From a virus, in UHGV virus genome UHGV-1357383: a DNA stretch of 45,565 nt; one strand, 5' to 3'. Both the position numbers and the translations under genes were made by a program. Below the pieces are notes generated by a model. The model ran no database searches and was not told the DNA's origin. It was given only the letters and a program-made list of their open reading frames with translations. This document shows, in pieces, positions 4,056 to 34,831 of the stretch (within the stretch, counting starts at the first letter, position 1; each line of letters begins with the position of its first letter).

Positions 4056-4124
4056 CTCCCAAAAAGGCGGAACGTAGACCGCTCTGGCGCACCAACCATC
4101 TACGGAGCCTGCTACGAGGTTTGT
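4027..4124 (+). promoter_or_regulatory. Extended -10 promoter (TGGTAAAAT) plus conserved leader of HNH cassette copy 2
   Basis: Near-identical to 1388-1483 (3 mismatches in the 85-nt leader). Overlaps the end of the chaperone ORF. Confidence 0.5.
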
Positions 4125-4712
4125 ATGAAAGAAATCGATATTGGTTATCTGAAGTGCATTCTAGACTACTGCCCTTCGACAGGAGTATTTACTTGGAAGA
4201 AAAGGGCGAGGGAAGAATTCTCGTCACAAAGAGCGCATAGTACTTTTAACGCTAAGTTCGCGGGTAAGCAGTGCGGCTCATTAACTAATAAATATCTGAC
4301 AATCAGGATAAACAATAGCCTCTACTATAGCCATAGATTGGCGTGGGCTATGCATTATGGCGAGTGGCCAGTCGGTGATGTGGACCATATCAATATGGAC
4401 AAAACTGATAATCGGATCTCGAATCTTCGGCTTGCCAGAAGGCGAGATAACATGAATAACCTTACTGCCACAAAGTCAAATAAGAGTGGGTTTATTGGGG
4501 TGTACTGGGCTAAAAGAGAGCGGAAGTGGGTCTCAGGAATCACCATCGACTATAAGTTTCACCATCTTGGTTACTTTGATGACCCTGTCTCAGCAGCAAA
4601 CGCCTATAACGCAGCATGCGAAAAGGCAAACGGCCGATTCTCGAAAGAAAAAATCAAGCATAATCTTAAAAAAATGGAGTTGTTTCAATGTATTGGAGAA
4701 AGATGTTTGTGA
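4125..4712 (+). CDS. HNH endonuclease with AP2-like domain, paralog 2 (195 aa)
   Basis: VDHINMDKTDNRISNLR HNH motif. AP2-like SGFIGVYWAKRERKWVSGITIDYKFHHLGYFDDPVSAANAY. Roughly 35-40% identical to copy 1. Confidence 0.8.
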   Translation: MKEIDIGYLKCILDYCPSTGVFTWKKRAREEFSSQRAHSTFNAKFAGKQCGSLTNKYLTIRINNSLYYSHRLAWAMHYGEWPVGDVDHINMDKTDNRISNLRLARRRDNMNNLTATKSNKSGFIGVYWAKRERKWVSGITIDYKFHHLGYFDDPVSAANAYNAACEKANGRFSKEKIKHNLKKMELFQCIGERCL

Positions 4713-4803
4713 TGAAACGGGAAATGGCATGTTTACAATAAAGTGATTTACATGCCGTTTTAAACGTTTGATATACAAGCTATAACTATTTAGGTGGCTG
4801 AAA

Positions 4804-5382
4804 TTATTTAAATTTTTTACTAGATTCTTCTATCCAGTTCTCATAAAAGGCAATCCCCGCCCTTGCAAGATCAACAGGTTTAGTGGATGTTATTGGGTTT
4901 CCTAGATGACTATTCGGCGGGTCATACGTACCACTTCTACTCGTTACGGCTATTGCTTCAATTGATTCAGGATGGAACTGTATCAAGGCAGGGGCACCTT
5001 CAAAATGCATATTACCAAAACCATCTATACTTAGGTTCTTGATATATAGAGATTTTGAGCCTGGAGCAGGGTCGATTGTGGTGCTAGCTGGAACTTTCTT
5101 AGATATGTCGCCTATGGTATGGTTGTCGCAGTCTCGCGCTTGTTTAATGTAGCGTAGTAAATCATCGCTACCTTTTATCGCATATTCTTTTGAGAATGCA
5201 TTTGTAAACTGTCCCTTTACTGGGTTGATTGCATTGAGAAGTTTCGTAAATGATTTTTCTATATGATTTAAGCAGTCTCGCCAAAGCTGCTCCATGTCAT
5301 CAAAGTTAGTAGACGACTCCATTTCTGAAATGCATTTCTTGGCTGCTTTTATTTCTTTTCTTGCTGGGTTGTAGTCAATCAT
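4804..5382 (-). CDS. Hypothetical protein (192 aa), minus-strand moron within the tail module
   Basis: Long ORF with ATG start opposite to the late operon. AT-rich island. Divergent intergenic region 5383-5597. Confidence 0.5.
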   Translation of the reverse strand: MIDYNPARKEIKAAKKCISEMESSTNFDDMEQLWRDCLNHIEKSFTKLLNAINPVKGQFTNAFSKEYAIKGSDDLLRYIKQARDCDNHTIGDISKKVPASTTIDPAPGSKSLYIKNLSIDGFGNMHFEGAPALIQFHPESIEAIAVTSRSGTYDPPNSHLGNPITSTKPVDLARAGIAFYENWIEESSKKFK

Positions 5383-5597
5383 CGTTGCTCCTTAATGTAG
5401 ATCTGTAGAGTCTGTTAATTGTTTGAATTTTAATGTAATAGGTGTTGGCTTTAGTGCGCAAGATAGCTAAGCCTTCACGTATCCATTAGATTAACTCAGC
5501 AACGAGAAGACGAAAATACTGATAAACGATCAGGTGGTTTTGTCGTTCCCTCGTATCCCTGCTAATCTGTCCAAAACTAACCAGTGGGGATAGGGAT

Positions 5598-13929: not shown

Positions 13930-16188
13930 ATGGCAGAAGTTCCACTCCCAACGCCGACGCAGGTTCCGGTACCGAGTACCGATATCCGCAATGCGGTATT
14001 TGCAGGCGCGAAGCTTGACGAAGAAGTTACTGGCACCGGTGAATTCTATACTGACCGTCTTGGTGTAAAGCGCCTGACGAACACCGGAAGAAATAATCAG
14101 TTCGATGCCGCGCAACTGGACAGAGCTAATCGGTTTGAGCAATTCCTTCTGTCCTCCGGCTACGTTTTTCTTGGCGACTATGAGGATGGTCCATTTCAGT
14201 TTAGTGCTCGTAACCAGTACATCCGCTATAACAACCAGTATTACCGCCTGAATGCTGCTACTGACGTCGGCTTTACGACCACCGGAACCGATGCGACCAG
14301 CTTTGCTAGCGACGTTAATCACTTCGTTCTGATGGATGGTGATACGCTTCGCCAAAACCTAGGTTCAGGCGAAGGCTTTAAACTCGTCGGCCAGTTTGGG
14401 CATGTAGATGAGTTGAGGAGATATTTCCCGTCAGCAGACGGTGAGTCTGTACTGGTAAAATCATATAACCACGGATGGGCGGCCGTGGCCGATTCTCCGC
14501 GAGGGGGCGGTGAGTTTTATTACGATGCTACCGACACCACTTCTGCTGACGACGGGGTGTTTACGTTCGTCACTATTGGCGGCCATAGATTTAAAAGGCG
14601 TAATCTTAATGGTGTTATTACGCTATCTCAGGCGGGATCCCCGGTAGATGGCTCGACAAATGCTGATGAGGCGTTTACGCGACTGCACAACGCTATTTTA
14701 TCCCGTTCTGACTTGTGGCGAGTAGACGGTGAGAATTTAACGTATGTGCGCACCACCCCCTTACTTCAGGATATTTCGCGTTATTCAGTCAATAACATGT
14801 ACCTGATGTTTGATGGTGTTACAGATTTTTCATCAGAAACGCCGTTCTATGCCTGGAGACCATCCGATAGCCTTGGCACTAATAAGCGTACGTTCACACG
14901 CAAGATGAAAAACGTTACGTTCCACGGTCCTGGTTATCGCATTGATACAAACATCCACGGTTTGCTTTTGCACATGGAAAGCCAAAGCGAATCCCTGCGG
15001 CAAATGAAATTTGAAAATGTTAATGTGCGCGACTTTAATAAAGGGCACGTATATGGAGACCATGCTTATCTGATTACGTTTGAAAACTGCAACATCTGGC
15101 GTTGCTTTACTGGATTGTCTGACAGAGAGATTATTGAAGGTGTGGCCTTAACTGACTCTGGAGAGAATATCCGTTACGTTGATTGTTTACTGGATAGTCT
15201 GCACCAACTTTGGGATTTGGGAACACAAGAGTTAGTACTGACTTTTGATAAAGTGAGCTTTGACTATACTGGTCGTACTGCTGTTGAAAAGTATACTCAA
15301 GGTTCTTATCGAGGAACTCACCAGATAACACTCCGGGACTGTTTTATTGAATCGGGTAACGTGAATGCTGGCTGGTATGGATTTGGTTTCTATACTACGG
15401 CTGCATCTACTTTGCGTATTATTGGCGGCATCATTCGTCTTGTCAGCACCACGTATAATAACTGCCCCTATTTTTTCTACGATACATCTGGTCTTGCATC
15501 GTTCGAAATTGACGGTACAACAATTAACGGATGGGGTGCAAAACAATGGGCCAATACCGGCCTTCGTAAATTCAGGCCAAATCTCAAAGGGGAGACAAGT
15601 CAGTTTTCGTTGCACACCACTGACGACCCGATAGTGTGGAATCCTAATAATATAAATGACCTTGACTATCAGGTGCGTGGTCTTCGTGGGACTACTGTGT
15701 ACACGGACAGATACACAAACGACCGCATCACTGTTGTTGAAAGTAGCATCACTAAAGACGACGGCACCGTAGTTCCGACCCTGCTAATTACAAAGCTTGC
15801 AGGGTATGGTCAGTTAGCTGATTTTATCGTCAAGGCCCGCCGCCCGGTCAAAGCAGATCATAATTCAATAATGCACGGGAAAATAACATTTGTGCCCGGA
15901 GCGAATAGGAGTTCAGCAAGGGTAATAACGGCGATAACCGGATGCCTCACCCCAGGCAGAACAACGCCTGTAGGTGTTATGGAGTCGTACATGTCAACAA
16001 CAATAACATCAACCGCCGTGTCGCTGCTGGACCCTGTTCCCTGGTATGAGATCAACACAAGCTGGGGGGCCAACAAATCAGCTCAATTTCTTAGCTTTGA
16101 GTACGACATGATAAGGCTGGATTTATCCAATCTGGCCGCCGGCGATGCAATACACGTTCATTCACTTCAATGGTTTGGGGCGTTCTGA
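13930..16188 (+). CDS. Tailspike / tail fibre with parallel beta-helix (putative polysaccharide depolymerase) domain (about 752 aa)
   Basis: N-terminal anchor-like region then a long region of beta-helix style repeats. C-terminal half is AT-rich. ATG at 13930 is the likely start. The track start at 13903 is a GTG. Confidence 0.6.
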   Translation: MAEVPLPTPTQVPVPSTDIRNAVFAGAKLDEEVTGTGEFYTDRLGVKRLTNTGRNNQFDAAQLDRANRFEQFLLSSGYVFLGDYEDGPFQFSARNQYIRYNNQYYRLNAATDVGFTTTGTDATSFASDVNHFVLMDGDTLRQNLGSGEGFKLVGQFGHVDELRRYFPSADGESVLVKSYNHGWAAVADSPRGGGEFYYDATDTTSADDGVFTFVTIGGHRFKRRNLNGVITLSQAGSPVDGSTNADEAFTRLHNAILSRSDLWRVDGENLTYVRTTPLLQDISRYSVNNMYLMFDGVTDFSSETPFYAWRPSDSLGTNKRTFTRKMKNVTFHGPGYRIDTNIHGLLLHMESQSESLRQMKFENVNVRDFNKGHVYGDHAYLITFENCNIWRCFTGLSDREIIEGVALTDSGENIRYVDCLLDSLHQLWDLGTQELVLTFDKVSFDYTGRTAVEKYTQGSYRGTHQITLRDCFIESGNVNAGWYGFGFYTTAASTLRIIGGIIRLVSTTYNNCPYFFYDTSGLASFEIDGTTINGWGAKQWANTGLRKFRPNLKGETSQFSLHTTDDPIVWNPNNINDLDYQVRGLRGTTVYTDRYTNDRITVVESSITKDDGTVVPTLLITKLAGYGQLADFIVKARRPVKADHNSIMHGKITFVPGANRSSARVITAITGCLTPGRTTPVGVMESYMSTTITSTAVSLLDPVPWYEINTSWGANKSAQFLSFEYDMIRLDLSNLAAGDAIHVHSLQWFGAF

Positions 16189-16400
16189 TGAGTGACTACA
16201 TGAGTTATAAAATGGCGGTTGGTGCAGTGCGTAGTGGTGCTGAAAGAATCAGGCGCATTGACTGGGTTGATACAACGTATGTTTCCGCAGCTGCTGTTGA
16301 TGACCCCTCTAATGCCCCGTTAGTGCTCTTTACTAATGGCGTTGAGAGCGACTACTCACCGACCGATGATGATAGGGCCGGAGACTGGATTTGTTTTTGA
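16187..16400 (+). CDS. Small hypothetical protein after the tailspike gene (about 70 aa)
   Basis: ATG overlaps the tailspike stop (TGATG). Confidence 0.35.
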
Positions 16401-16604
16401 TATAAAACGGACATGCCGATACTGGAGACTCACTTGATAGCCTTGAGCCTCCAGTTGATAGAGAAAACCATCAGTGCATGCTGATGTGAACTATCCCGTA
16501 AATACGGTTTTTATGATGCTCTTTTTTTTACTCCCTACTATTTTATTTACAATCAATGTTTGGATGCAGACAATAGTTGATGCTATTACAATAGCCGATA
16601 AATA

Positions 16605-17513
16605 TTATATGATGAAGTTAGTGTTGCTATCATTTCTTTTAAAGAACTCTACAACTGGAATATGCCAAAGATAAATCCAGATTGTATTTGATGATGCAAA
16701 TTCAAATAAAGGATTTATTTTTCCTATTTTTAGGGATTTTATTATCATGAAAACAGTGAAAGTCATTATTAATGAGAATGCGACATAATATAATGTCGGT
16801 GGGTATTTATAGCTTTGAGGCATGTCAATTCTCCCGTACTGGAAGTAATTGCACGCTATGTACGCTATGAAAATAGTCGAAAACATCGCGATTGAAAAAT
16901 AAATTTGTTTTTTAGAAAGTGATAGCGCCTTGTATCCAAGTATAAAAACAGATCCGTATGATATACATGGTATGATGATGTCATTTATTAAGAAGTATAT
17001 AATAAAGGGGGTAGGGTGGGGGATGAGTTTTGAAATTAACAACGATATCATTAAAAAAAAGAAAGCCAGGATGGATATGAAATACCCACTCACCCTGTTA
17101 GCTAAAAGAGTAAGTAGTGGGGAGAGAAGTGCGACAAGCAAAAATACTTTGATTATCCATACATACCCAAATCCACTTAACATAAATGTCAATATAATTG
17201 TTTTTATAGTTAAGTCATTTGTAAAACTAGTAACCCCGAAAGCATATATGAAAGAAAAGAATAAAGAAAAGAAAACCCATACGGGTAATACCAGTCTTTT
17301 GAATCTAGATAGGATGTACGGGACGATTCTAACATTTGTTTTACCTGAGTAATAATATGACATTCCCGAGACAAATACCATCATGGGTACATCAAAAGTT
17401 CTTATCTGGAAAAGTACATTAGGGGGATTAACGTGAGCTAGTATTATTAACAGTATCCCTGCTAACCTCATCAAATCTATCGTTGTATTTCTACTAACCA
17501 TAATCACTCCCAA
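16605..17513 (-). CDS. Acyltransferase family 3 membrane protein (O-antigen/capsule O-acetyltransferase-like lysogenic conversion gene, 302 aa)
   Basis: N-terminal MRLAGILLIILAHV signature of acyltransferase_3. Polytopic hydrophobic protein. Very AT-rich gene on the opposite strand from the tail genes. Confidence 0.75.
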   Translation of the reverse strand: MGVIMVSRNTTIDLMRLAGILLIILAHVNPPNVLFQIRTFDVPMMVFVSGMSYYYSGKTNVRIVPYILSRFKRLVLPVWVFFSLFFSFIYAFGVTSFTNDLTIKTIILTFMLSGFGYVWIIKVFLLVALLSPLLTLLANRVSGYFISILAFFFLMISLLISKLIPHPTPFIIYFLINDIIIPCISYGSVFILGYKALSLSKKQIYFSIAMFSTIFIAYIACNYFQYGRIDMPQSYKYPPTLYYVAFSLIMTFTVFMIIKSLKIGKINPLFEFASSNTIWIYLWHIPVVEFFKRNDSNTNFII

Positions 17514-20310: not shown

Positions 20311-20529
20311 TCAGCGCTCCTTTATCTTTCCGTTCAAAATGCCGATTTCCACATAGAGATGGCTTGGCGTTAACCCAAGCTGCCTTATCAGCGGCATGCA
20401 TCCGTTGAGGATCGGTCGTGATATCTCGTCGCAACTTAAAGCGGGAGATGACCGCCGTTTTGCCTTAACCTCATCGTTAGCCCTGCGCGCGATGCTTCTG
20501 AGCGCATTTTTCTTTTCTTCTGGCGTCAT
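20311..20529 (-). CDS. Small hypothetical protein (72 aa)
   Basis: ATG (MTPEEKK) directly after the upstream stop. The track ORF extends further 5' and overlaps the upstream gene. Confidence 0.4.
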   Translation of the reverse strand: MTPEEKKNALRSIARRANDEVKAKRRSSPALSCDEISRPILNGCMPLIRQLGLTPSHLYVEIGILNGKIKER

Positions 20530-21296
20530 GCTGCCTCCCGCTTCTTGTTGAGATGGGGTGCATTCGAAAGGAAAACCGCCTTTGCAAATCCAAGAGGCGT
20601 TGCGCTGCGAATGTTGGCGCGCTCGTCGCTGGGCGGACATTCGTGAATTCGGTTGTCCGGATACCAGTCAGTCACTAATCCGGCAAAGGACGTTCCGGAT
20701 ATGGCTTCGATCGCCTTTTTCTTCGGCATCATGCGGCCGCAGGCTAGCTTCACGGCGTCGATAGCCGCTTCAACCATCGGGTGCATATTCTCTGCCGGCG
20801 CATTGAAACCGTTACCCGTCCAGAGGCATGTCTGCTTCGTGTAGTTGTCATCCGTGCACAGCCCAGTGAACTGGTACGGATGGAATGTGTAATCGGCCGA
20901 GCCGAATATGCTACTGAACACGCTCACCGGGTTTTCGAATGCCCACGGGCAGCCAGCCGCTAAACCAGTCATCCGACATTGCTCAGCGACCAGCGCGGCC
21001 TTGGCCTGGAAATGCGGGTCTTTGGCGCGCTTGGACTCGAACCAGCGGGACCCGGAAACAGCCACGTCCGTGCATGGTGGGAAGCCGATGACGATGACGA
21101 CGTTCTCAGAGCGGATGATCTGAGATAGCCGCGGCATCGCCTCAAGGATGGTTGCCGATATGCGCTCAACAGGACCGTCGATCGAAGTTTCAGGGTGCTG
21201 CGGGTCCACCAGGACAGCGCGATAACCTGCTTCGACCCATGGCTCAGCCATTTTCCCTGTTAAATCACAGAGGCAGATAACAGTACCTTTGCTCAT
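20526..21296 (-). CDS. Putative DNA (cytosine-5) methyltransferase-like protein (256 aa)
   Basis: Motif IV-like GFPPCTDVAVSGSR and motif VI-like AFENPV. N-terminal DLTGKMAEPWVEAGY is AdoMet-motif-like. Confidence 0.5.
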   Translation of the reverse strand: MSKGTVICLCDLTGKMAEPWVEAGYRAVLVDPQHPETSIDGPVERISATILEAMPRLSQIIRSENVVIVIGFPPCTDVAVSGSRWFESKRAKDPHFQAKAALVAEQCRMTGLAAGCPWAFENPVSVFSSIFGSADYTFHPYQFTGLCTDDNYTKQTCLWTGNGFNAPAENMHPMVEAAIDAVKLACGRMMPKKKAIEAISGTSFAGLVTDWYPDNRIHECPPSDERANIRSATPLGFAKAVFLSNAPHLNKKREAA

Positions 21297-21820
21297 GCTG
21301 CCTCCAGATTTCCGATCCGCTTTAACTCATCCAGCGATACGGTCGTGATGATGTGTCGCGGGGTGATGTACGGGCGCCAGATAAACAGGAGCGAGCCTTT
21401 GGGGTTGCTCATGCGCTTTCCTGTAACAGATGCCGGAACAAACTGAACACGGCCGCCGGTTATCAGCCTGAGTTCATCAGCTGATTGCATGGCTGAAATA
21501 AACCAGCCAGTAGAGATGTCAGCTGGTAGCAACATCACTACGGCATGAGACTGCGCCCGGGATTGCTCAGCAGCTTTTTCCACCCATGGGCCGATATCGG
21601 AATAGGGTGGGTTACACCAGATCGCCCCGTATGGCGTCCATTCGCTGTTCAGCGAGTCATCCAGCTCAGTGAGATAGTGAGCGCATAGCGCATTACTCTC
21701 AGAGGCTGCAGCATCCAGCCAGAAGCCAAACTCGCGGTCGAGCGCGTTGAAAATTTCAATCGGCGTTTTCCAGTAGTCACGTTCATTTTTTGGAGTTTTC
21801 GTTCCGCCATAATCAGTCAT
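21293..21820 (-). CDS. Phage N6-adenine DNA methyltransferase (Dam-like, about 175 aa)
   Basis: NPPY motif (IWCNPPYSD). Start MTDYGG at 21820 with AAGAGGTG RBS. Confidence 0.75.
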   Translation of the reverse strand: MTDYGGTKTPKNERDYWKTPIEIFNALDREFGFWLDAAASESNALCAHYLTELDDSLNSEWTPYGAIWCNPPYSDIGPWVEKAAEQSRAQSHAVVMLLPADISTGWFISAMQSADELRLITGGRVQFVPASVTGKRMSNPKGSLLFIWRPYITPRHIITTVSLDELKRIGNLEAA

Positions 21821-21848
21821 TGCGCACCTCTTTTCGTGCCTGCCTTTC

Positions 21849-22472
21849 TCATGCGGCATGGTCGTGGTTTTTTATGCTGGAAATCTCTTTCTCCAGCTCT
21901 TCCAGGAACTTTTTCACTTCGGACTCAATCTCATTTGCCAGTGCTTCGTCGAAGTGAATGCGCTTTTTGAAATAGGCGAGGTCTGGCGGTAGACGATCGT
22001 CGAAACTAACGAAATCACACCATTTACGCCCTGTGCACATCATCTGAGCGTGCATCTGCAACAGGTACTGGCGTTTTGGCTCGCCAGTTTTTAAGGTCTC
22101 AAGATGAGTCCAGGTGTTGGGGCACTTAATTTCGATAAGCCCATCACCATTAACAAGCCCATCAGGGCTTGCTGCGAATCCTGGTATAGTTGGGTGATCG
22201 ATAAGCCCCACCTCAGTGATTTCGGCATCGAACTCATTCAGCGCATACATCTCGCGTGCTACCGGCTCGAGTTCTGTTCCGCGTATCATTGCGGCGTTGG
22301 AGAAACCTTCTTCAAGCTTCCCGGTGAGGCGCTGGCAAATCAGCTCGGCCATGTAGTTCTGTCGGCTTGCTGCATAGCCAGACTTGGTTCTGGCCATGAC
22401 GTCAGCAAGGCGGCTGGCTGTGACTTTTCCGCAGCGAGCGGCAAACCATTCTGGGGTGCGTTGTTCCATCAT
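21849..22472 (-). CDS. YqaJ-like recombination exonuclease (207 aa)
   Basis: QRTPEWFAARCGKVTASRLADVM N-terminal signature of the YqaJ viral recombinase family. Confidence 0.8.
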   Translation of the reverse strand: MMEQRTPEWFAARCGKVTASRLADVMARTKSGYAASRQNYMAELICQRLTGKLEEGFSNAAMIRGTELEPVAREMYALNEFDAEITEVGLIDHPTIPGFAASPDGLVNGDGLIEIKCPNTWTHLETLKTGEPKRQYLLQMHAQMMCTGRKWCDFVSFDDRLPPDLAYFKKRIHFDEALANEIESEVKKFLEELEKEISSIKNHDHAA

Positions 22473-23803: not shown

Positions 23804-23906
23804 TGAACACCCCCGTAACGTGCAGAATTTTGATAATCAACGCTGTCCAGATAACGCCGCAGATCAGCAGGCAGTAAATCAGTGAACGAATGCCTTGCTT
23901 GCTCAT
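23796..23906 (-). CDS. Small hydrophobic membrane peptide (36 aa, MSKQGIRSLIYCLLICGVIWTALIIKILHVTGVFNG)
   Basis: ATG preceded by GGGGTGG. Single predicted TM helix. Start overlaps the stop of the upstream peptide (ATGA). Confidence 0.35.
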   Translation of the reverse strand: MSKQGIRSLIYCLLICGVIWTALIIKILHVTGVFNG

Positions 23907-24010
23907 TTGCCACCCCAGCACGGATAGCTAACTGCGATAACAGCAACCAAAAACGGAACGACCTTTAACCAAAAATTACGCCATGCAGGCTTGTCTTCTT
24001 CGCGGATCAT
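23903..24010 (-). CDS. Small hydrophobic membrane peptide (35 aa, MIREEDKPAWRNFWLKVVPFLVAVIAVSYPCWGGK)
   Basis: ATG preceded by AAGGTGAAGAG. First ORF downstream of the oL-like repeats. Translated by hand from the sequence. Confidence 0.35.
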   Translation of the reverse strand: MIREEDKPAWRNFWLKVVPFLVAVIAVSYPCWGGK

Positions 24011-24089: not shown

Positions 24090-24180
24090 ATAATGTACTA
24101 ATGGTTCATCATTGTAAAGTACCAATAGTACATTTTTGATTTATGGATAGTTCATATTCAGGTAAGCTCATGAACTTAAA
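24090..24180. promoter_or_regulatory. oL/pL-like operator region with repeated sites (TGTACTAATGGTTCATCATTG and related)
   Basis: The 21-bp site at 24094-24114 is near-identical to 26132-26152 in the cI/cro intergenic region. Further GTAC/GTTCAT repeats lie at 24118-24177. Confidence 0.4.
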
Positions 24181-24269
24181 GTATATTTATTTTTTTCGTT
24201 CTGTTTATGGATGATGACGTATGGCAGGGCGCTTGATGCAGTGACTCTGAGGAAAAGGTGAGGTGGTAC

Positions 24270-24299
24270 AAAAAACCCGGGGTGTTCCGGGTTTTTTTC
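24270..24299. terminator. Bidirectional intrinsic terminator (A-run, aacccgg-ggtgtt-ccgggtt, T-run)
   Basis: Perfect 7-bp stem flanked by A5 and T7. Ends the cI-cassette operon on the minus strand. Confidence 0.65.
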
Positions 24300-24307
24300 T
24301 TGTAATA

Positions 24308-25006
24308 TCATGGAGTTCCAGTTAACGCCCCGTAAATCTTATACAACACAAATGCAAGAGCAGGTAGCCCTAAAGCCCATTTGATTATGTCAAGTTTAAC
24401 CTCTGTTAACTTACCTTCGATCTTTGCTTCTTGGATAGAAAGGGCTGCGTCAATTTTTTTGGACTGCGAATCGAGGGCGCTTTCAATTTTAGTCGATTGC
24501 ATGTCCAATCTACCATTAATCTTTTCATGCTGAGTGGATATCAACCCCTTGATTTCTTTCATATCTAAAGCCATTGTTTCACGCCACTTGGCCATGTCAG
24601 CTTGCATCTTAGAAGCTACAGCATCTACTTCAGCCTTGTTTGCTTTCAGTAGTGCTTGTATTTCATTTCTGTTTAAATCTGACATATGAGAATCCTGCTT
24701 GTCCTTTGGTGAAGCCGGCTTTACGAAATCTGGAGTGTAATATCCTTCTGGCGATTCAATTTCGACACCAATTGAGAAAAGTTTAGAAGATTCGTCCAAA
24801 GTTTCCTCAGGTTCTCTATCTTTTTTCTGTGGGTACATAGAAAAAATAGGTTTTTCAAAATTCGCCTTAAGTAAGTCTGAACCAGTCTGCATGAAGCTCA
24901 TAAAATCTTGAGATGGAACATTGCTAAGAGTAAGTGACAAAGGCGTAGTTGTACTACCTTTCGTGTAAGAAATGGTCAGGTCACCTACATCTTCTTCTCT
25001 TTTCAT
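24308..25006 (-). CDS. Rex-position protein B: coiled-coil protein with four 11-residue repeats and a C-terminal transmembrane anchor (232 aa)
   Basis: LDMQSTKIESA/LDSQSKKIDAA/LSIQEAKIEGK/LTEVKLDIIKW repeats followed by ALGLPALAFVLYKIYGAL. AT-rich. Translationally coupled to the upstream gene. Confidence 0.6.
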   Translation of the reverse strand: MKREEDVGDLTISYTKGSTTTPLSLTLSNVPSQDFMSFMQTGSDLLKANFEKPIFSMYPQKKDREPEETLDESSKLFSIGVEIESPEGYYTPDFVKPASPKDKQDSHMSDLNRNEIQALLKANKAEVDAVASKMQADMAKWRETMALDMKEIKGLISTQHEKINGRLDMQSTKIESALDSQSKKIDAALSIQEAKIEGKLTEVKLDIIKWALGLPALAFVLYKIYGALTGTP

Positions 25007-25326
25007 CAGCGCGATGTTCCCTTCGAGTGCTGAGCGTCAAGTTGATCCAGAAGACCTTTCAAGTTTTCGTTAAAAGTTCTTAACTGGTCAATACCCATAA
25101 GGACAGTACATTCTTGGTAAAGTTCATTCCTTGAGCCGATTTGCAAGTTTGCTCTACCTGGTTCCTCTTGGATCTCCTGTTGAGAAACAATCACTGGTAT
25201 AGACTTGTTTTTCAAAAAATGTATGTAGATCATTTTATCGTTAGATGAGCTCACCGGTGAAAAACTTGCAAAGTCAGCAGAGGTCTCAATGAAACTATCC
25301 GAAAGCTTAATATCAATGTTTTGCAT
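25006..25326 (-). CDS. Rex-position protein A: hypothetical protein (106 aa) immediately downstream of cI
   Basis: AAGGA RBS 8 nt upstream. Lies 45 nt after the cI stop on the same strand. AT-rich. Confidence 0.55.
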   Translation of the reverse strand: MQNIDIKLSDSFIETSADFASFSPVSSSNDKMIYIHFLKNKSIPVIVSQQEIQEEPGRANLQIGSRNELYQECTVLMGIDQLRTFNENLKGLLDQLDAQHSKGTSR

Positions 25327-25371
25327 TTTTTTTCCTTAAAATTAGGGTGCATATGCTGCGTTTGATAAAAA

Positions 25372-26094
25372 TTACCCATGCTTCCTGTACGTCTGCGGCA
25401 TGCTGCCGATCACCTTGCCGAACACGAATACCCGGTTCATCTCGTCTTTCTCGATCGGGTCCCATGCTGCGTAGCTCTTGTTATCTGAGATAACTAACAG
25501 CTTGTCCTTCATCTTCTGCAGGCGTTTAACGTGTGCTGTATCGTCGTACAAGAACGCATAAATCCCATCACCGTCAAATCTCTTAACGCTGATATCCACA
25601 AACAGCAAATCTCCTGGCTCAATCGTACCTGACATACTGTCGCCGCGGACGTTGATAATCCTGATGTTCTCAGCTTTGCGCCCATCAAACATATGGTTAG
25701 CCTCAGCTGGCGCATACTCAACGGAACGGAGTATCTCAACGAACTCTTGGTTTATCACCCCTGGACCAGCGCTGACGGCGATATCCAAGAGGTCAATCCT
25801 AAAGATGTCTTTTCGATTGGTTGCCGATCCTGGTTCAATACCATCATCGTCAGCATCGCCAAGCAGGTAGGATGCAGACGTGCCTATGTGAGACGCTAAG
25901 GCCTGAAGCGTTCCCCGTCTTGGTATTGACTCCCCGTTAAACCATTTGCTCACGGCTTTAGGTGTCAACTTCATTCTCTTGGCGATTTCAGCCTGGCGAC
26001 CGTGTGGCATCAATCCAGCTTTATCGCAGGCCAGCGCTAGCCTCAGAGAAAATTCTTTTCGCGCTCTTTCTTCGTGAACCATGTGTTCAATCAT
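25372..26094 (-). CDS. cI: CI-type repressor (N-terminal HTH plus C-terminal S24 LexA-like peptidase)
   Basis: HTH in GRQAEIAKRMKLTPKAVSKWFNGE. S24 catalytic VRGDSMSGTIEPGDLLFVD and the Lys in HVKRL. Confidence 0.85.
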   Translation of the reverse strand: MIEHMVHEERARKEFSLRLALACDKAGLMPHGRQAEIAKRMKLTPKAVSKWFNGESIPRRGTLQALASHIGTSASYLLGDADDDGIEPGSATNRKDIFRIDLLDIAVSAGPGVINQEFVEILRSVEYAPAEANHMFDGRKAENIRIINVRGDSMSGTIEPGDLLFVDISVKRFDGDGIYAFLYDDTAHVKRLQKMKDKLLVISDNKSYAAWDPIEKDEMNRVFVFGKVIGSMPQTYRKHG

Positions 26095-26162
26095 AATATC
26101 ACTTGCGTGAACTATCAGTTCCGACTTAATATGTACTTACAGTTCATTATTGAGGGTTAAAC
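26095..26162. promoter_or_regulatory. oR / divergent pRM-pR region
   Basis: Intergenic region between divergent cI and cro genes. Carries the 21-bp operator-like site TGTACTTACAGTTCATTATTG at 26132-26152. Confidence 0.5.
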
Positions 26163-34275: not shown

Positions 34276-34831
34276 ATACGTCATATTTGAGTCTACTTTG
34301 ATATGCTGCCTTAACTTTAAGTGGCGGCATGAAGATGATAGTCACATACCAGTTTGTAAAATTAGCCTCGGCATTCCGCCGGGGCTTTTTTATGCCTGCG
34401 ATCCGGTCAGGGCTCTTGGGTTGAGACGTGCTGCACGACACGTCGACACCCGCCGGTAAGAGCTCTGAACCAGACTGAAGTTACTCTGCAATAAGAAAAC
34501 TGCATGTCATCATTTGCTTACATCTTATTGACCAGAAAATTAACATCTTGTTAATCTATTCTTGTGGTGAATCCCCCTGTGCGGTGGGGCGACCAGTCAC
34601 TTACAGTGATCTGTAAATGCAGCGCGGGCCATGTCGGCTGGGACATGCTCACCGGGAGGCACCCGGCACCACGCAGTACTACTAAGACATTTGGTAGTGG
34701 GGTTGCTGTTTCGGCTCCTCCATCTATGTTTAAAAGGCAGTAACGGAAAAAGCGAGCGCTCTCCTGGTAAATCGGTAGCTCGGACTATTAGGTGCGCTTT
34801 CGTTTGTTACTACCTAGAATGTCTACTTTCT

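Follow-up and report, generated by a model that had tools for sequence, protein, structure and literature searches.

The virus genome UHGV-1357383 (45,565 nucleotides (nt); "the window" hereafter means this whole stretch) carries a cassette of two small genes, here called A and B, directly downstream of its cI-type repressor gene, and this cassette occupies the position of rexA/rexB in lambda, co-oriented with cI. Both open reading frames (ORFs) are real and are conserved as a pair across genera. The cassette is, as judged from the breaks in homology around it, a swap-in module, with sibling phages that share its flanks holding other cargo in its place. B appears to be a DUF1640-like protein built of neck, stalk, and anchor, with an adaptor at its N-terminus that is specific to the family, although its score is too low to place it strictly within PF07798. 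The simplest reading of how the two proteins vary is that A binds this adaptor, the two together making up a rapidly changing head that can be exchanged while neck, stalk, and anchor stay conserved. From the context and the modularity we consider it quite possible, if somewhat short of probable, that the pair protects the lysogen against other phages (exclusion).

The cassette in the rex position

The ORF upstream of A is a cI-type repressor because it carries HTH_3 and Peptidase_S24 domains (Table 1). A first-pass annotation of this DNA had described two minus-strand genes coupled by a TGATG overlap between cI and a bidirectional terminator, the first of them starting 45 nt after the cI stop behind an AAGGA site, and the coordinates, the overlap, and the hairpin folding all agree with that description. 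With the end of the cI stop codon at 25372 and the A start codon at 25326, 45 nt separate the two genes, and the A stop and B start overlap by one shared base, which indicates translational coupling. Immediately 3' of the B stop codon follows AAAAAAACCCGGAACACCCCGGGTTTTTT, and the terminator hairpin, which a simple pattern scan missed, folds at -15.7 kcal/mol on the minus strand (z -4.2) and at -19.2 kcal/mol on the plus strand (z -3.9), an energy that none of the shuffles matched. In the 45-nt spacer between cI and A, reading of the sequence found no hairpin-plus-T-run and a promoter/terminator scan placed no site. cI is presumed to be the upstream gene of a lysogenic transcript that also carries A and B, and co-transcription of the cassette with cI in the lysogen can be inferred with good support from this arrangement.

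The operator-like motif TGWAC-N5-GTTCA matches the window 15 times against 4.4 expected, a count that none of the shuffles reached, and its matches cluster at 26075-26146 (oR), in the interval between cI and the divergent cro-like gene, where the motif occurs three times, and at 24094-24185, just past the terminator. Because clusters flank it on either side, the cassette sits between cI and an oL/pL-like region, in which there is also an inverted repeat (24092-24105 / 24121-24134). The leftward genes past this region include Kil-like and Gam-like proteins (PHROG matches), followed in the ORF list by genes that look by eye RecT-like and exonuclease-like. The assignment to the rexAB slot made in the first-pass annotation is thus borne out by the cassette's own terminator, by the operators just beyond it, and by the lack of any terminator seen in the 45-nt gap.

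Table 1. Features of the cassette and its surroundings in the window (aa, amino acids; pLDDT, predicted local distance difference test)
Feature	Position	Strand	Basis or remark
cI-type prophage repressor, 240 aa	25372..26094	(-)	Peptidase_S24 E = 6.7e-17, HTH_3 E = 9e-9 (Pfam)
cI-A spacer, 45 nt	25327..25371	(-)	AAGGA ribosome-binding site at 25333-25337, 6 nt ahead of ATG
Gene A, 106 aa, soluble acidic partner protein (type 1 partner family)	25006..25326	(-)	six-frame ORF list
Gene B, 232 aa, DUF1640-like anchored coiled-coil protein	24308..25006	(-)	six-frame ORF list
B residues 1-50, beta-beta-alpha N-terminal adaptor (TISY..P..NV..DFMxF)	24857..25006	(-)	pLDDT 67-81
B residues 55-108, hypervariable linker, predicted disordered	24683..24844	(-)	pLDDT <50; no conserved columns
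B residues 108-127, neck, MSDLNRNEIQALLKANKAEV, the family's most conserved stretch	24626..24685	(-)	start of stalk
B residues 128-205, hendecad coiled-coil stalk	24392..24625	(-)	lag-11 periodicity; within one long helix
B residues 206-228, C-terminal hydrophobic anchor, IIKWALGLPALAFVLYKIYGAL, with 4 residues after it	24323..24391	(-)	borderline transmembrane
Bidirectional intrinsic terminator closing the cassette, AAAAACCCGG-loop-CCGGGUUUUU	about 24270-24298	both strands	directly after B stop
oL/pL-like region	24094..24185		operator-like sites TGWAC-N5-GTTCA at 24094-24108 and 24171-24185
Variable block	24095..25371		homology breaks vs Klebsiella phage ST11-VIM1phi8.2 and E. coli W21 prophage

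The region between cI and N has been termed a hotspot of mosaic diversity; its occupants are rexAB in lambda and bstA in BTP1 (PMC8585504). In the window, homology to Klebsiella phage ST11-VIM1phi8.2 and to the E. coli W21 prophage reaches 24094 and restarts at 25372, the cI stop codon. Between the same flanks the former carries a ParA-like ATPase gene and a 49-aa ORF (locus L038, 1637-2713) and the latter two overlapping hypothetical genes of 195 and 305 aa (locus L039, 1024-2525), which are further uncharacterized occupants of the hotspot. The guanine-plus-cytosine (GC) content of the cassette is 39.5%, against 51.7% for the window and 52-54% for the flanks, in agreement with the first-pass annotation, and just 4% of the window's same-sized segments are at or below 40%. 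The composition, together with the differing cargo of the sibling phages, makes foreign origin as a horizontally acquired moron the best explanation of the AT-rich cassette. A nucleotide search of phage records and 5,426 complete E. coli genomes did not find the cassette DNA; only the last 49 nt of cI matched. As to the neighboring DNA, the first ORF past the oL/pL-like region (23900-24010, minus strand) reads by eye as a hydrophobic peptide of about 36 aa, MIREEDKPAWRNFWLKVVPFLVAVIAVSYPCWGGK, whose DNA is common to ST11-VIM1phi8.2 and the W21 prophage, and no N-type antiterminator gene was recognized between pL and Kil.

Recurrence of the pair and design of its proteins

Related loci were collected from coliphage HK542, 6 exact-protein look-ups, 2 species-representative genomes, and 28 IMG/VR contigs, giving 37 loci, or 38 with the window, which at 90% identity of B reduce to 24 non-redundant clusters. 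In all but one of the 38 loci, an ORF of 92-165 aa in the same orientation adjoins the B homolog, the distance between the two ranging from -23 to +12 nt. An S24-type cI lies directly upstream of the pair in 21 of the 38 and a CI-type repressor with a helix-turn-helix domain only in four more; counted non-redundantly, the pair follows a repressor in 14 of the 24 B clusters, including one locus with a single ORF between cI and the pair, so that recurrence of such pairs downstream of cI-like repressors, a check called for in the first-pass annotation, is found. In that connection, an extra 160-aa ORF (phrog_34525, function unknown) separates cI from the partner-B pair in L026 (3781-4263), which suggests that cargo stacks in the post-cI slot. 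The pair is also present at other moron sites, namely convergent with tail-fiber genes, after a P22-type antirepressor gene, among tail genes, and at a prophage edge; therefore, linkage to a repressor is frequent and not obligatory. All family members found are phage-borne, and only phage contexts were met.

Exact copies of A and of B were found in Klebsiella pneumoniae and Klebsiella quasipneumoniae, with one variant of each on at least 1000 Klebsiella contigs, and because of these copies we take the window, on sequence grounds, to be a Klebsiella lambdoid prophage or phage. Database entries for the exact copies bear the names 'hypothetical' and 'DUF1640 domain-containing' and, for B, also 'CCDC90 family'. 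The same cassette recurs at 95-99% identity on two uncultivated viral contigs, and across Klebsiella, Yersinia, Serratia, and uncultivated viral contigs the coupling stays intact at identities of 41-85% for A and 47-84% for B. In Yersinia, identical A and B proteins stand behind repressors whose mutual identity is only 30%. By tblastn, a distant B homolog was found in the immunity regions of coliphages HK542 and HK244. In the HK542 record, where cI, PRM, PR, and PL are annotated as lambda-like, a 144-aa ORF overlapping a 206-aa B homolog fills the cI-PL interval in place of rexAB, and pairs of this type are present on at least 1000 E. coli contigs. The only locus without a small abutting partner is L029 (5016-5456), where a 146-aa B homolog lies 90 nt after a P22-type antirepressor (Ant) gene and opens directly with the neck motif (MSDNFTKTELEALLRANKAEV), lacking the adaptor. 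This protein may be a stalk-anchor without a head, or Ant may serve as its partner.

The AlphaFold2 model of B has a beta-beta-alpha unit at residues 7-49 (pLDDT 67-81), disorder at 55-108 (pLDDT <50), and a single helix at 113-229. The first 50 residues are presumed to form the A-binding module, and B would lie nearly wholly on the cytoplasmic side. In the family alignment the invariant residues are R113, E115, A118, L120, A122, K124, and E126, and invariant columns are concentrated in 108-145 (MSDLNRNEIQALLKANKAEVDAVAS.MQADMAKWRE) and 200-232. The neck holds two beta-layer-like motifs, NRNE and ANKAE, spaced 11 residues apart; an ANKAE-type motif is matched in 35 of the 38 loci, and the upstream motif reads N-R-N-E in the window's B and T-K-T-E in distant members. 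The near-invariant K-A-N-K-A-E of the neck carries N where the beta-layer motif [aliphatic]-A-T-K-[polar]-[DE] has T, and by eye we liken it to IENKAD and MATKDD. Beta-layer motifs such as IENKAD and [aliphatic]-A-T-K-[polar]-[DE] belong to trimeric alpha/beta coiled coils and occur 'prominently at the beginning of the C-terminal stalk' in proteins of the DUF1640 family, which are integral membrane proteins of prokaryotes and mitochondria (Hartmann et al., PMC4786415). By analogy with these motifs, the stalk of B is probably trimeric.

The first-pass annotation had described four tandem 11-residue repeats in the C-terminal half of B and a single C-terminal transmembrane anchor, and each of these claims holds in part. 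The periodicity stands, with hydrophobic autocorrelation peaks at lags 11 (0.42) and 22 (0.36) and 24/86 self-identities at lag 11 versus 9/90 at lag 7, but it is not restricted to four C-terminal units, as hendecads span residues 113-209. The hydrophobic segment is likewise present, but it is borderline for a transmembrane helix in the window's B, where the Kyte-Doolittle 19-residue maximum (KD19) is 1.6 and a 13-residue apolar core is flanked by two lysines. Distant homologs with the second kind of anchor (kind ii) have a strong transmembrane segment at the aligned position (KD19 2.5-2.7), followed by 28-40 Pro/Gln-rich residues. On balance, good support exists for regarding B as membrane-associated.

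B was also said to be unrecognizable as RexA/RexB or as any named defense protein; no such match emerged for either protein of the pair, but B is recognizable as DUF1640-like and as a member of PHROG 14825 (function unknown; E = 4e-50). The CCDC90-like/DUF1640 model of Pfam (PF07798) matches it with 28.8 bits against a cut-off of 33.5, aligning B 112-220 with profile positions 70-166 of 175, and of 25 family members scanned, 24 likewise match PF07798 with E values of 0.01 or lower, down to 1.7e-7. A word-indexed search of 5.8 billion proteins gave 25 clusters from Klebsiella, Yersinia, Serratia, Kluyvera, and metagenomes. A sequence profile search of the PDB returned no significant match for B, the ATKED-repeat-rich chain 6h9l aligning from residue 108 at E = 4 and no chain named MCUR1 or CCDC90B appearing among matches at E <= 10. 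Foldseek of the B model against the PDB was uninformative because the long monomeric helix dominates the model. A lysis protein (holin, spanin, or XhlA-like) was considered for B and is ruled out by the early-left position, by the orientation with cI, and by the lack of such a Pfam match.

The model of A (AlphaFold2, pLDDT 84.3) consists of strands at 19-24, 32-51, and 59-78 followed by a helix at 79-102, and the hydrophobicity profile shows no hydrophobic segment. The closest matches to this predicted fold, which are tentative, are the COMM domain and small beta-beta-beta-alpha oligomerization folds of the PUR-PC4 type. The A family is tiny: a profile search gave 15 clusters, and a hidden Markov model scan of 1.84 billion representatives gave 23 proteins at E <= 1e-3, nearly all of 85-116 aa. 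A is without a match in Pfam, NCBIfam, and PADLOC and has no meaningful match in PHROGs, and a structure search of BFVD returned only two uncharacterized phage proteins at E of about 3e-3. A Pfam scan of 36 members of the A family at E <= 10 gave nothing recurrent, and a suspected likeness to DUF3467 is rejected because the same scan gave no such match. The A-family profile also matches 31 separate stretches (profile positions 23-66) of one 4564-aa protein (P0041), which may be a repeat protein of A-type beta-hairpin units, or the match may be compositional.

BLAST clustering of the partner proteins separates several types, each of which is paired with its own B N-terminus. Type 1 is the A family itself (20 loci; B N-terminus TISY..P..NV..DFMxF); type 2, of about 118-131 aa, carries CxxC...CxxC and is zinc-ribbon-like (7 loci; DLYPHN); type 3 is about 96 aa long (6 loci; AYSNVIGLD); and type 4 is the HK542 type of about 144 aa (3, perhaps 4 loci; RL.VVGG). 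Types 1 and 3 are probably distant homologs, as they align by hhalign with a probability of 83.6% (E = 8e-6), and types 1 and 4 are unrelated (hhalign probability 0.1%). The two kinds of anchor are spread over all partner types, so that the alignments point to three or four partner types with anchor kinds that shuffle independently of them. Within type 1, identity to the window's proteins is 36-62% for A and 27-51% for the B N-terminus versus 71-84% for neck and C-terminus, the adaptor thus changing at about the same pace as A. Over the family as a whole, the head (partner plus B N-terminus) evolves two to three times faster than neck, stalk, and anchor. Between L025 and L026 the identity is 57% for A, 53% for the B N-terminus, and 64% for the neck, but 22% for the C-terminus. 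Within type 1, a mirror-tree comparison could not tell the parts of B apart in their correlation with A, since each gave rho 0.81-0.86, a reflection of shared phylogeny; modular swapping shows only in the comparisons between types and in L025 versus L026. From this co-variation we infer, with good support, that A and B form a complex.

Proposed function and alternatives

If the pair does serve in exclusion, the cassette would be transcribed with cI in the lysogen, ending at its own terminator before oL/pL, and soluble A would dock on the adaptor of B to make the joint head of the assembly. This exchangeable head would recognize a phage component and would be the specificity element. The stalk and anchor could then relay recognition to the inner membrane, where a breakdown of membrane integrity or potential, the mechanism proposed for RexA/RexB, would abort the infection; alternatively, they could hold the target at the membrane and block an early step or entry (superinfection exclusion). 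We put forward with somewhat greater reserve the fuller proposal that the pair represents an undescribed family of prophage defense widespread in Enterobacterales, a trimeric DUF1640-type anchored coiled coil with an exchangeable two-part phage-sensing head, which would signal to or act at the inner membrane.

Several points weigh against such a function. There is no homology to any protein of known function in PADLOC, NCBIfam, PHROGs, or the literature, and location in the rex slot is only circumstantial evidence, other cargo such as a ParA-like gene occupying the slot in sibling phages. The borderline anchor of the window's B speaks against it, and the DUF1640 coiled-coil matches may be partly compositional, given the sub-threshold score and the E of 4 for 6h9l. 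A block of injection from outside is unlikely because almost nothing would be exposed to the periplasm. Moreover, eukaryotic DUF1640 proteins are scaffolds and not pore formers.

This last point leads to a reading that we regard as unlikely, namely that the pair is a lysogenic-conversion factor, a membrane scaffold that alters envelope, transport, or stress properties of the host. The neck, stalk, and anchor of B are DUF1640-like, and the eukaryotic MCUR1 and CCDC90B scaffold inner-membrane complexes; the same prophage carries an AT-rich gene of conversion type, an Acyl_transf_3 acyltransferase, and the cassette is very common in clinical Klebsiella. However, the restriction of every family member found to phages does not favor a conversion factor, and a fast-evolving head swapped between unrelated folds would be unusual for a scaffold with a fixed host partner.

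The same exchange of unrelated partner types is easier to reconcile with external targets that change than with a single conserved target inside the cell, and this bears on the view that the pair acts on its own prophage, tuning the lysis-lysogeny switch, induction, or lytic timing, and is not aimed at other phages. A membrane-tethered complex could sequester or stabilize a phage or host regulator, for instance a protease, antirepressor, or replication protein. Such a role would agree with co-transcription with the repressor and with the finding that two family members lie directly after a P22-type antirepressor gene, a second immunity-type region; in lambda, too, RexA and RexB are each reported to influence the switch of the phage itself as well as the stability of proteins. 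Nevertheless, identical cassettes stand behind the 30%-identical repressors and the pair also occurs at tail-fiber, tail, and prophage-edge sites, which speaks against confinement of its function to a single regulatory circuit, and we consider self-regulation of this kind distinctly unlikely.

An addiction module of the toxin-antitoxin kind, which would stabilize the prophage with B as the membrane toxin and A as the neutralizer, appears more doubtful again. Pfam, NCBIfam, and PADLOC yielded no match to a toxin or antitoxin family, B, a large protein made up for the most part of a long cytoplasmic stalk, does not resemble the known small membrane toxins, and the weak anchor of the window's B argues against intrinsic membrane damage, even though the two genes are small and coupled, the upstream product is soluble and acidic, and the B N-terminus varies with the partner type. 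This reading overlaps with exclusion because many such modules act as abortive-infection systems. Finally, that the ORFs are chance frames or decaying remnants in an AT-rich spacer is hardly credible in view of the conserved pair with intact coupling, the confident fold prediction for A, and the invariant motifs, for all that A has no recognizable domain and very few relatives.

Of the places known to house a prophage exclusion system, the cI-pL region, with rexAB, has been known longest; bstA lies there as well. If the exclusion function is correct, the cassette would be a third, unrelated, and modular occupant, which would lend further weight to the idea of the slot as a general defense hotspot, and a phage-resistance function would have a direct bearing on phage therapy against K. 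pneumoniae, because the exact proteins are present on at least 1000 Klebsiella contigs. It would also provide a first function for prokaryotic proteins of the DUF1640/CCDC90 type and a case of sensor-head swapping on a constant stalk-anchor effector. The role of MCUR1 and CCDC90B, the mitochondrial relatives of these prokaryotic proteins, is still debated. The swappable head would be a natural experimental handle for mapping specificity, and HK542 and HK244 are model coliphages that carry the pair.

Elsewhere in the window, the most AT-rich island (15850-17500; GC down to 31.8%) lies between a tail-fiber-like gene and the integrase and contains the Acyl_transf_3 acyltransferase ORF (16605..17513, minus strand; E = 1.2e-20), which by its domain is probably a lysogenic-conversion moron for surface polysaccharide acetylation. 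In the third AT-rich island (4100-5400), within the structural-gene region, an HNH_3 endonuclease gene (E = 1.6e-18) converges with a 192-aa ORF without a Pfam match, the ORFs of the island lying at 4125..4712 on the plus strand and 4804..5382 on the minus strand. Translational coupling links a Dam-type N6-adenine methyltransferase gene (21293..21859, minus strand; Pfam Dam, E = 4e-66) with a 256-aa ORF without a Pfam match (20526..21296, minus strand), in which FPPC and ENP motifs are by eye reminiscent of C5-cytosine methyltransferases. The only Rfam family in the window is a full-length match to the small RNA STnc100 (34535-34729, plus strand; 89.7 bits against a gathering score of 47).

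Comparison with known systems

None of the defense models of PADLOC-DB v2.0.0 matched A, B, or the partners of the relatives above chance level (all E >= 0.001), the single match to A or B at E <= 10 being HEC-07 at 0.067, and for A and B NCBIfam gave no match and PHROGs gave only families of unknown function. Literature searches on DUF1640/CCDC90 with prophage or defense, on tail-anchored coiled-coil abortive infection, and on post-repressor genes returned no description of the pair in the literature collection searched. Its clear relatives are only uncharacterized phage proteins, among them the pair of HK542/HK244 (PHROG 5893 plus a B homolog, both genes tagged F864_gp35), whose two genes are annotated only as hypothetical. 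There too the small ORF overlaps the gene of a larger protein, and the B homolog shares neck, stalk, and anchor with the window's B (27% identity over residues 93-221). However, the coliphage pair differs in having the type 4 partner, another B N-terminus, and a strong transmembrane segment followed by a Pro/Gln-rich tail of about 34 residues.

The DUF1640/CCDC90 family (PF07798; MCUR1, CCDC90B) may resemble B in the beta-layer-type motif that opens a long stalk, which is putative in B, and in the C-terminal membrane anchor, which is borderline in B. In contrast, the score of B is below the gathering threshold and profile positions 1-69, the head of that family, are unmatched in B, which has instead a variable adaptor and a disordered linker at its N-terminal side, a hendecad stalk, a phage-borne setting, and a small partner gene.

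BstA of the Salmonella prophage BTP1 resembles the cassette in its location directly downstream of cI in the rexAB slot, with a presumed shared promoter (PMC8585504). It is a single large prophage defense protein described as localizing to phage DNA replication sites (PMC8585504). In comparison with the cassette, BstA is one protein, shows no homology, and is not a membrane protein.

Lambda RexA/RexB is likewise situated after cI and before oL/pL. As in the cassette, two co-transcribed genes lie in the same orientation as the repressor with a terminator at their end, and they encode one soluble and one membrane-associated product. No homology was detected, A having no Pfam match and B no Rex match at E <= 1, although the inclusion of Rex models in the libraries is unconfirmed. 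The sizes are reversed, the soluble A being the smaller protein in the cassette. In lambda, the larger protein RexA is the cytoplasmic sensor and RexB is polytopic in the membrane; B, for its part, combines one hydrophobic segment at the C-terminus with a long coiled coil predicted to be cytoplasmic. The best explanation of these likenesses and differences is that the cassette is a Rex-type occupant of the slot and not a homolog of RexAB.

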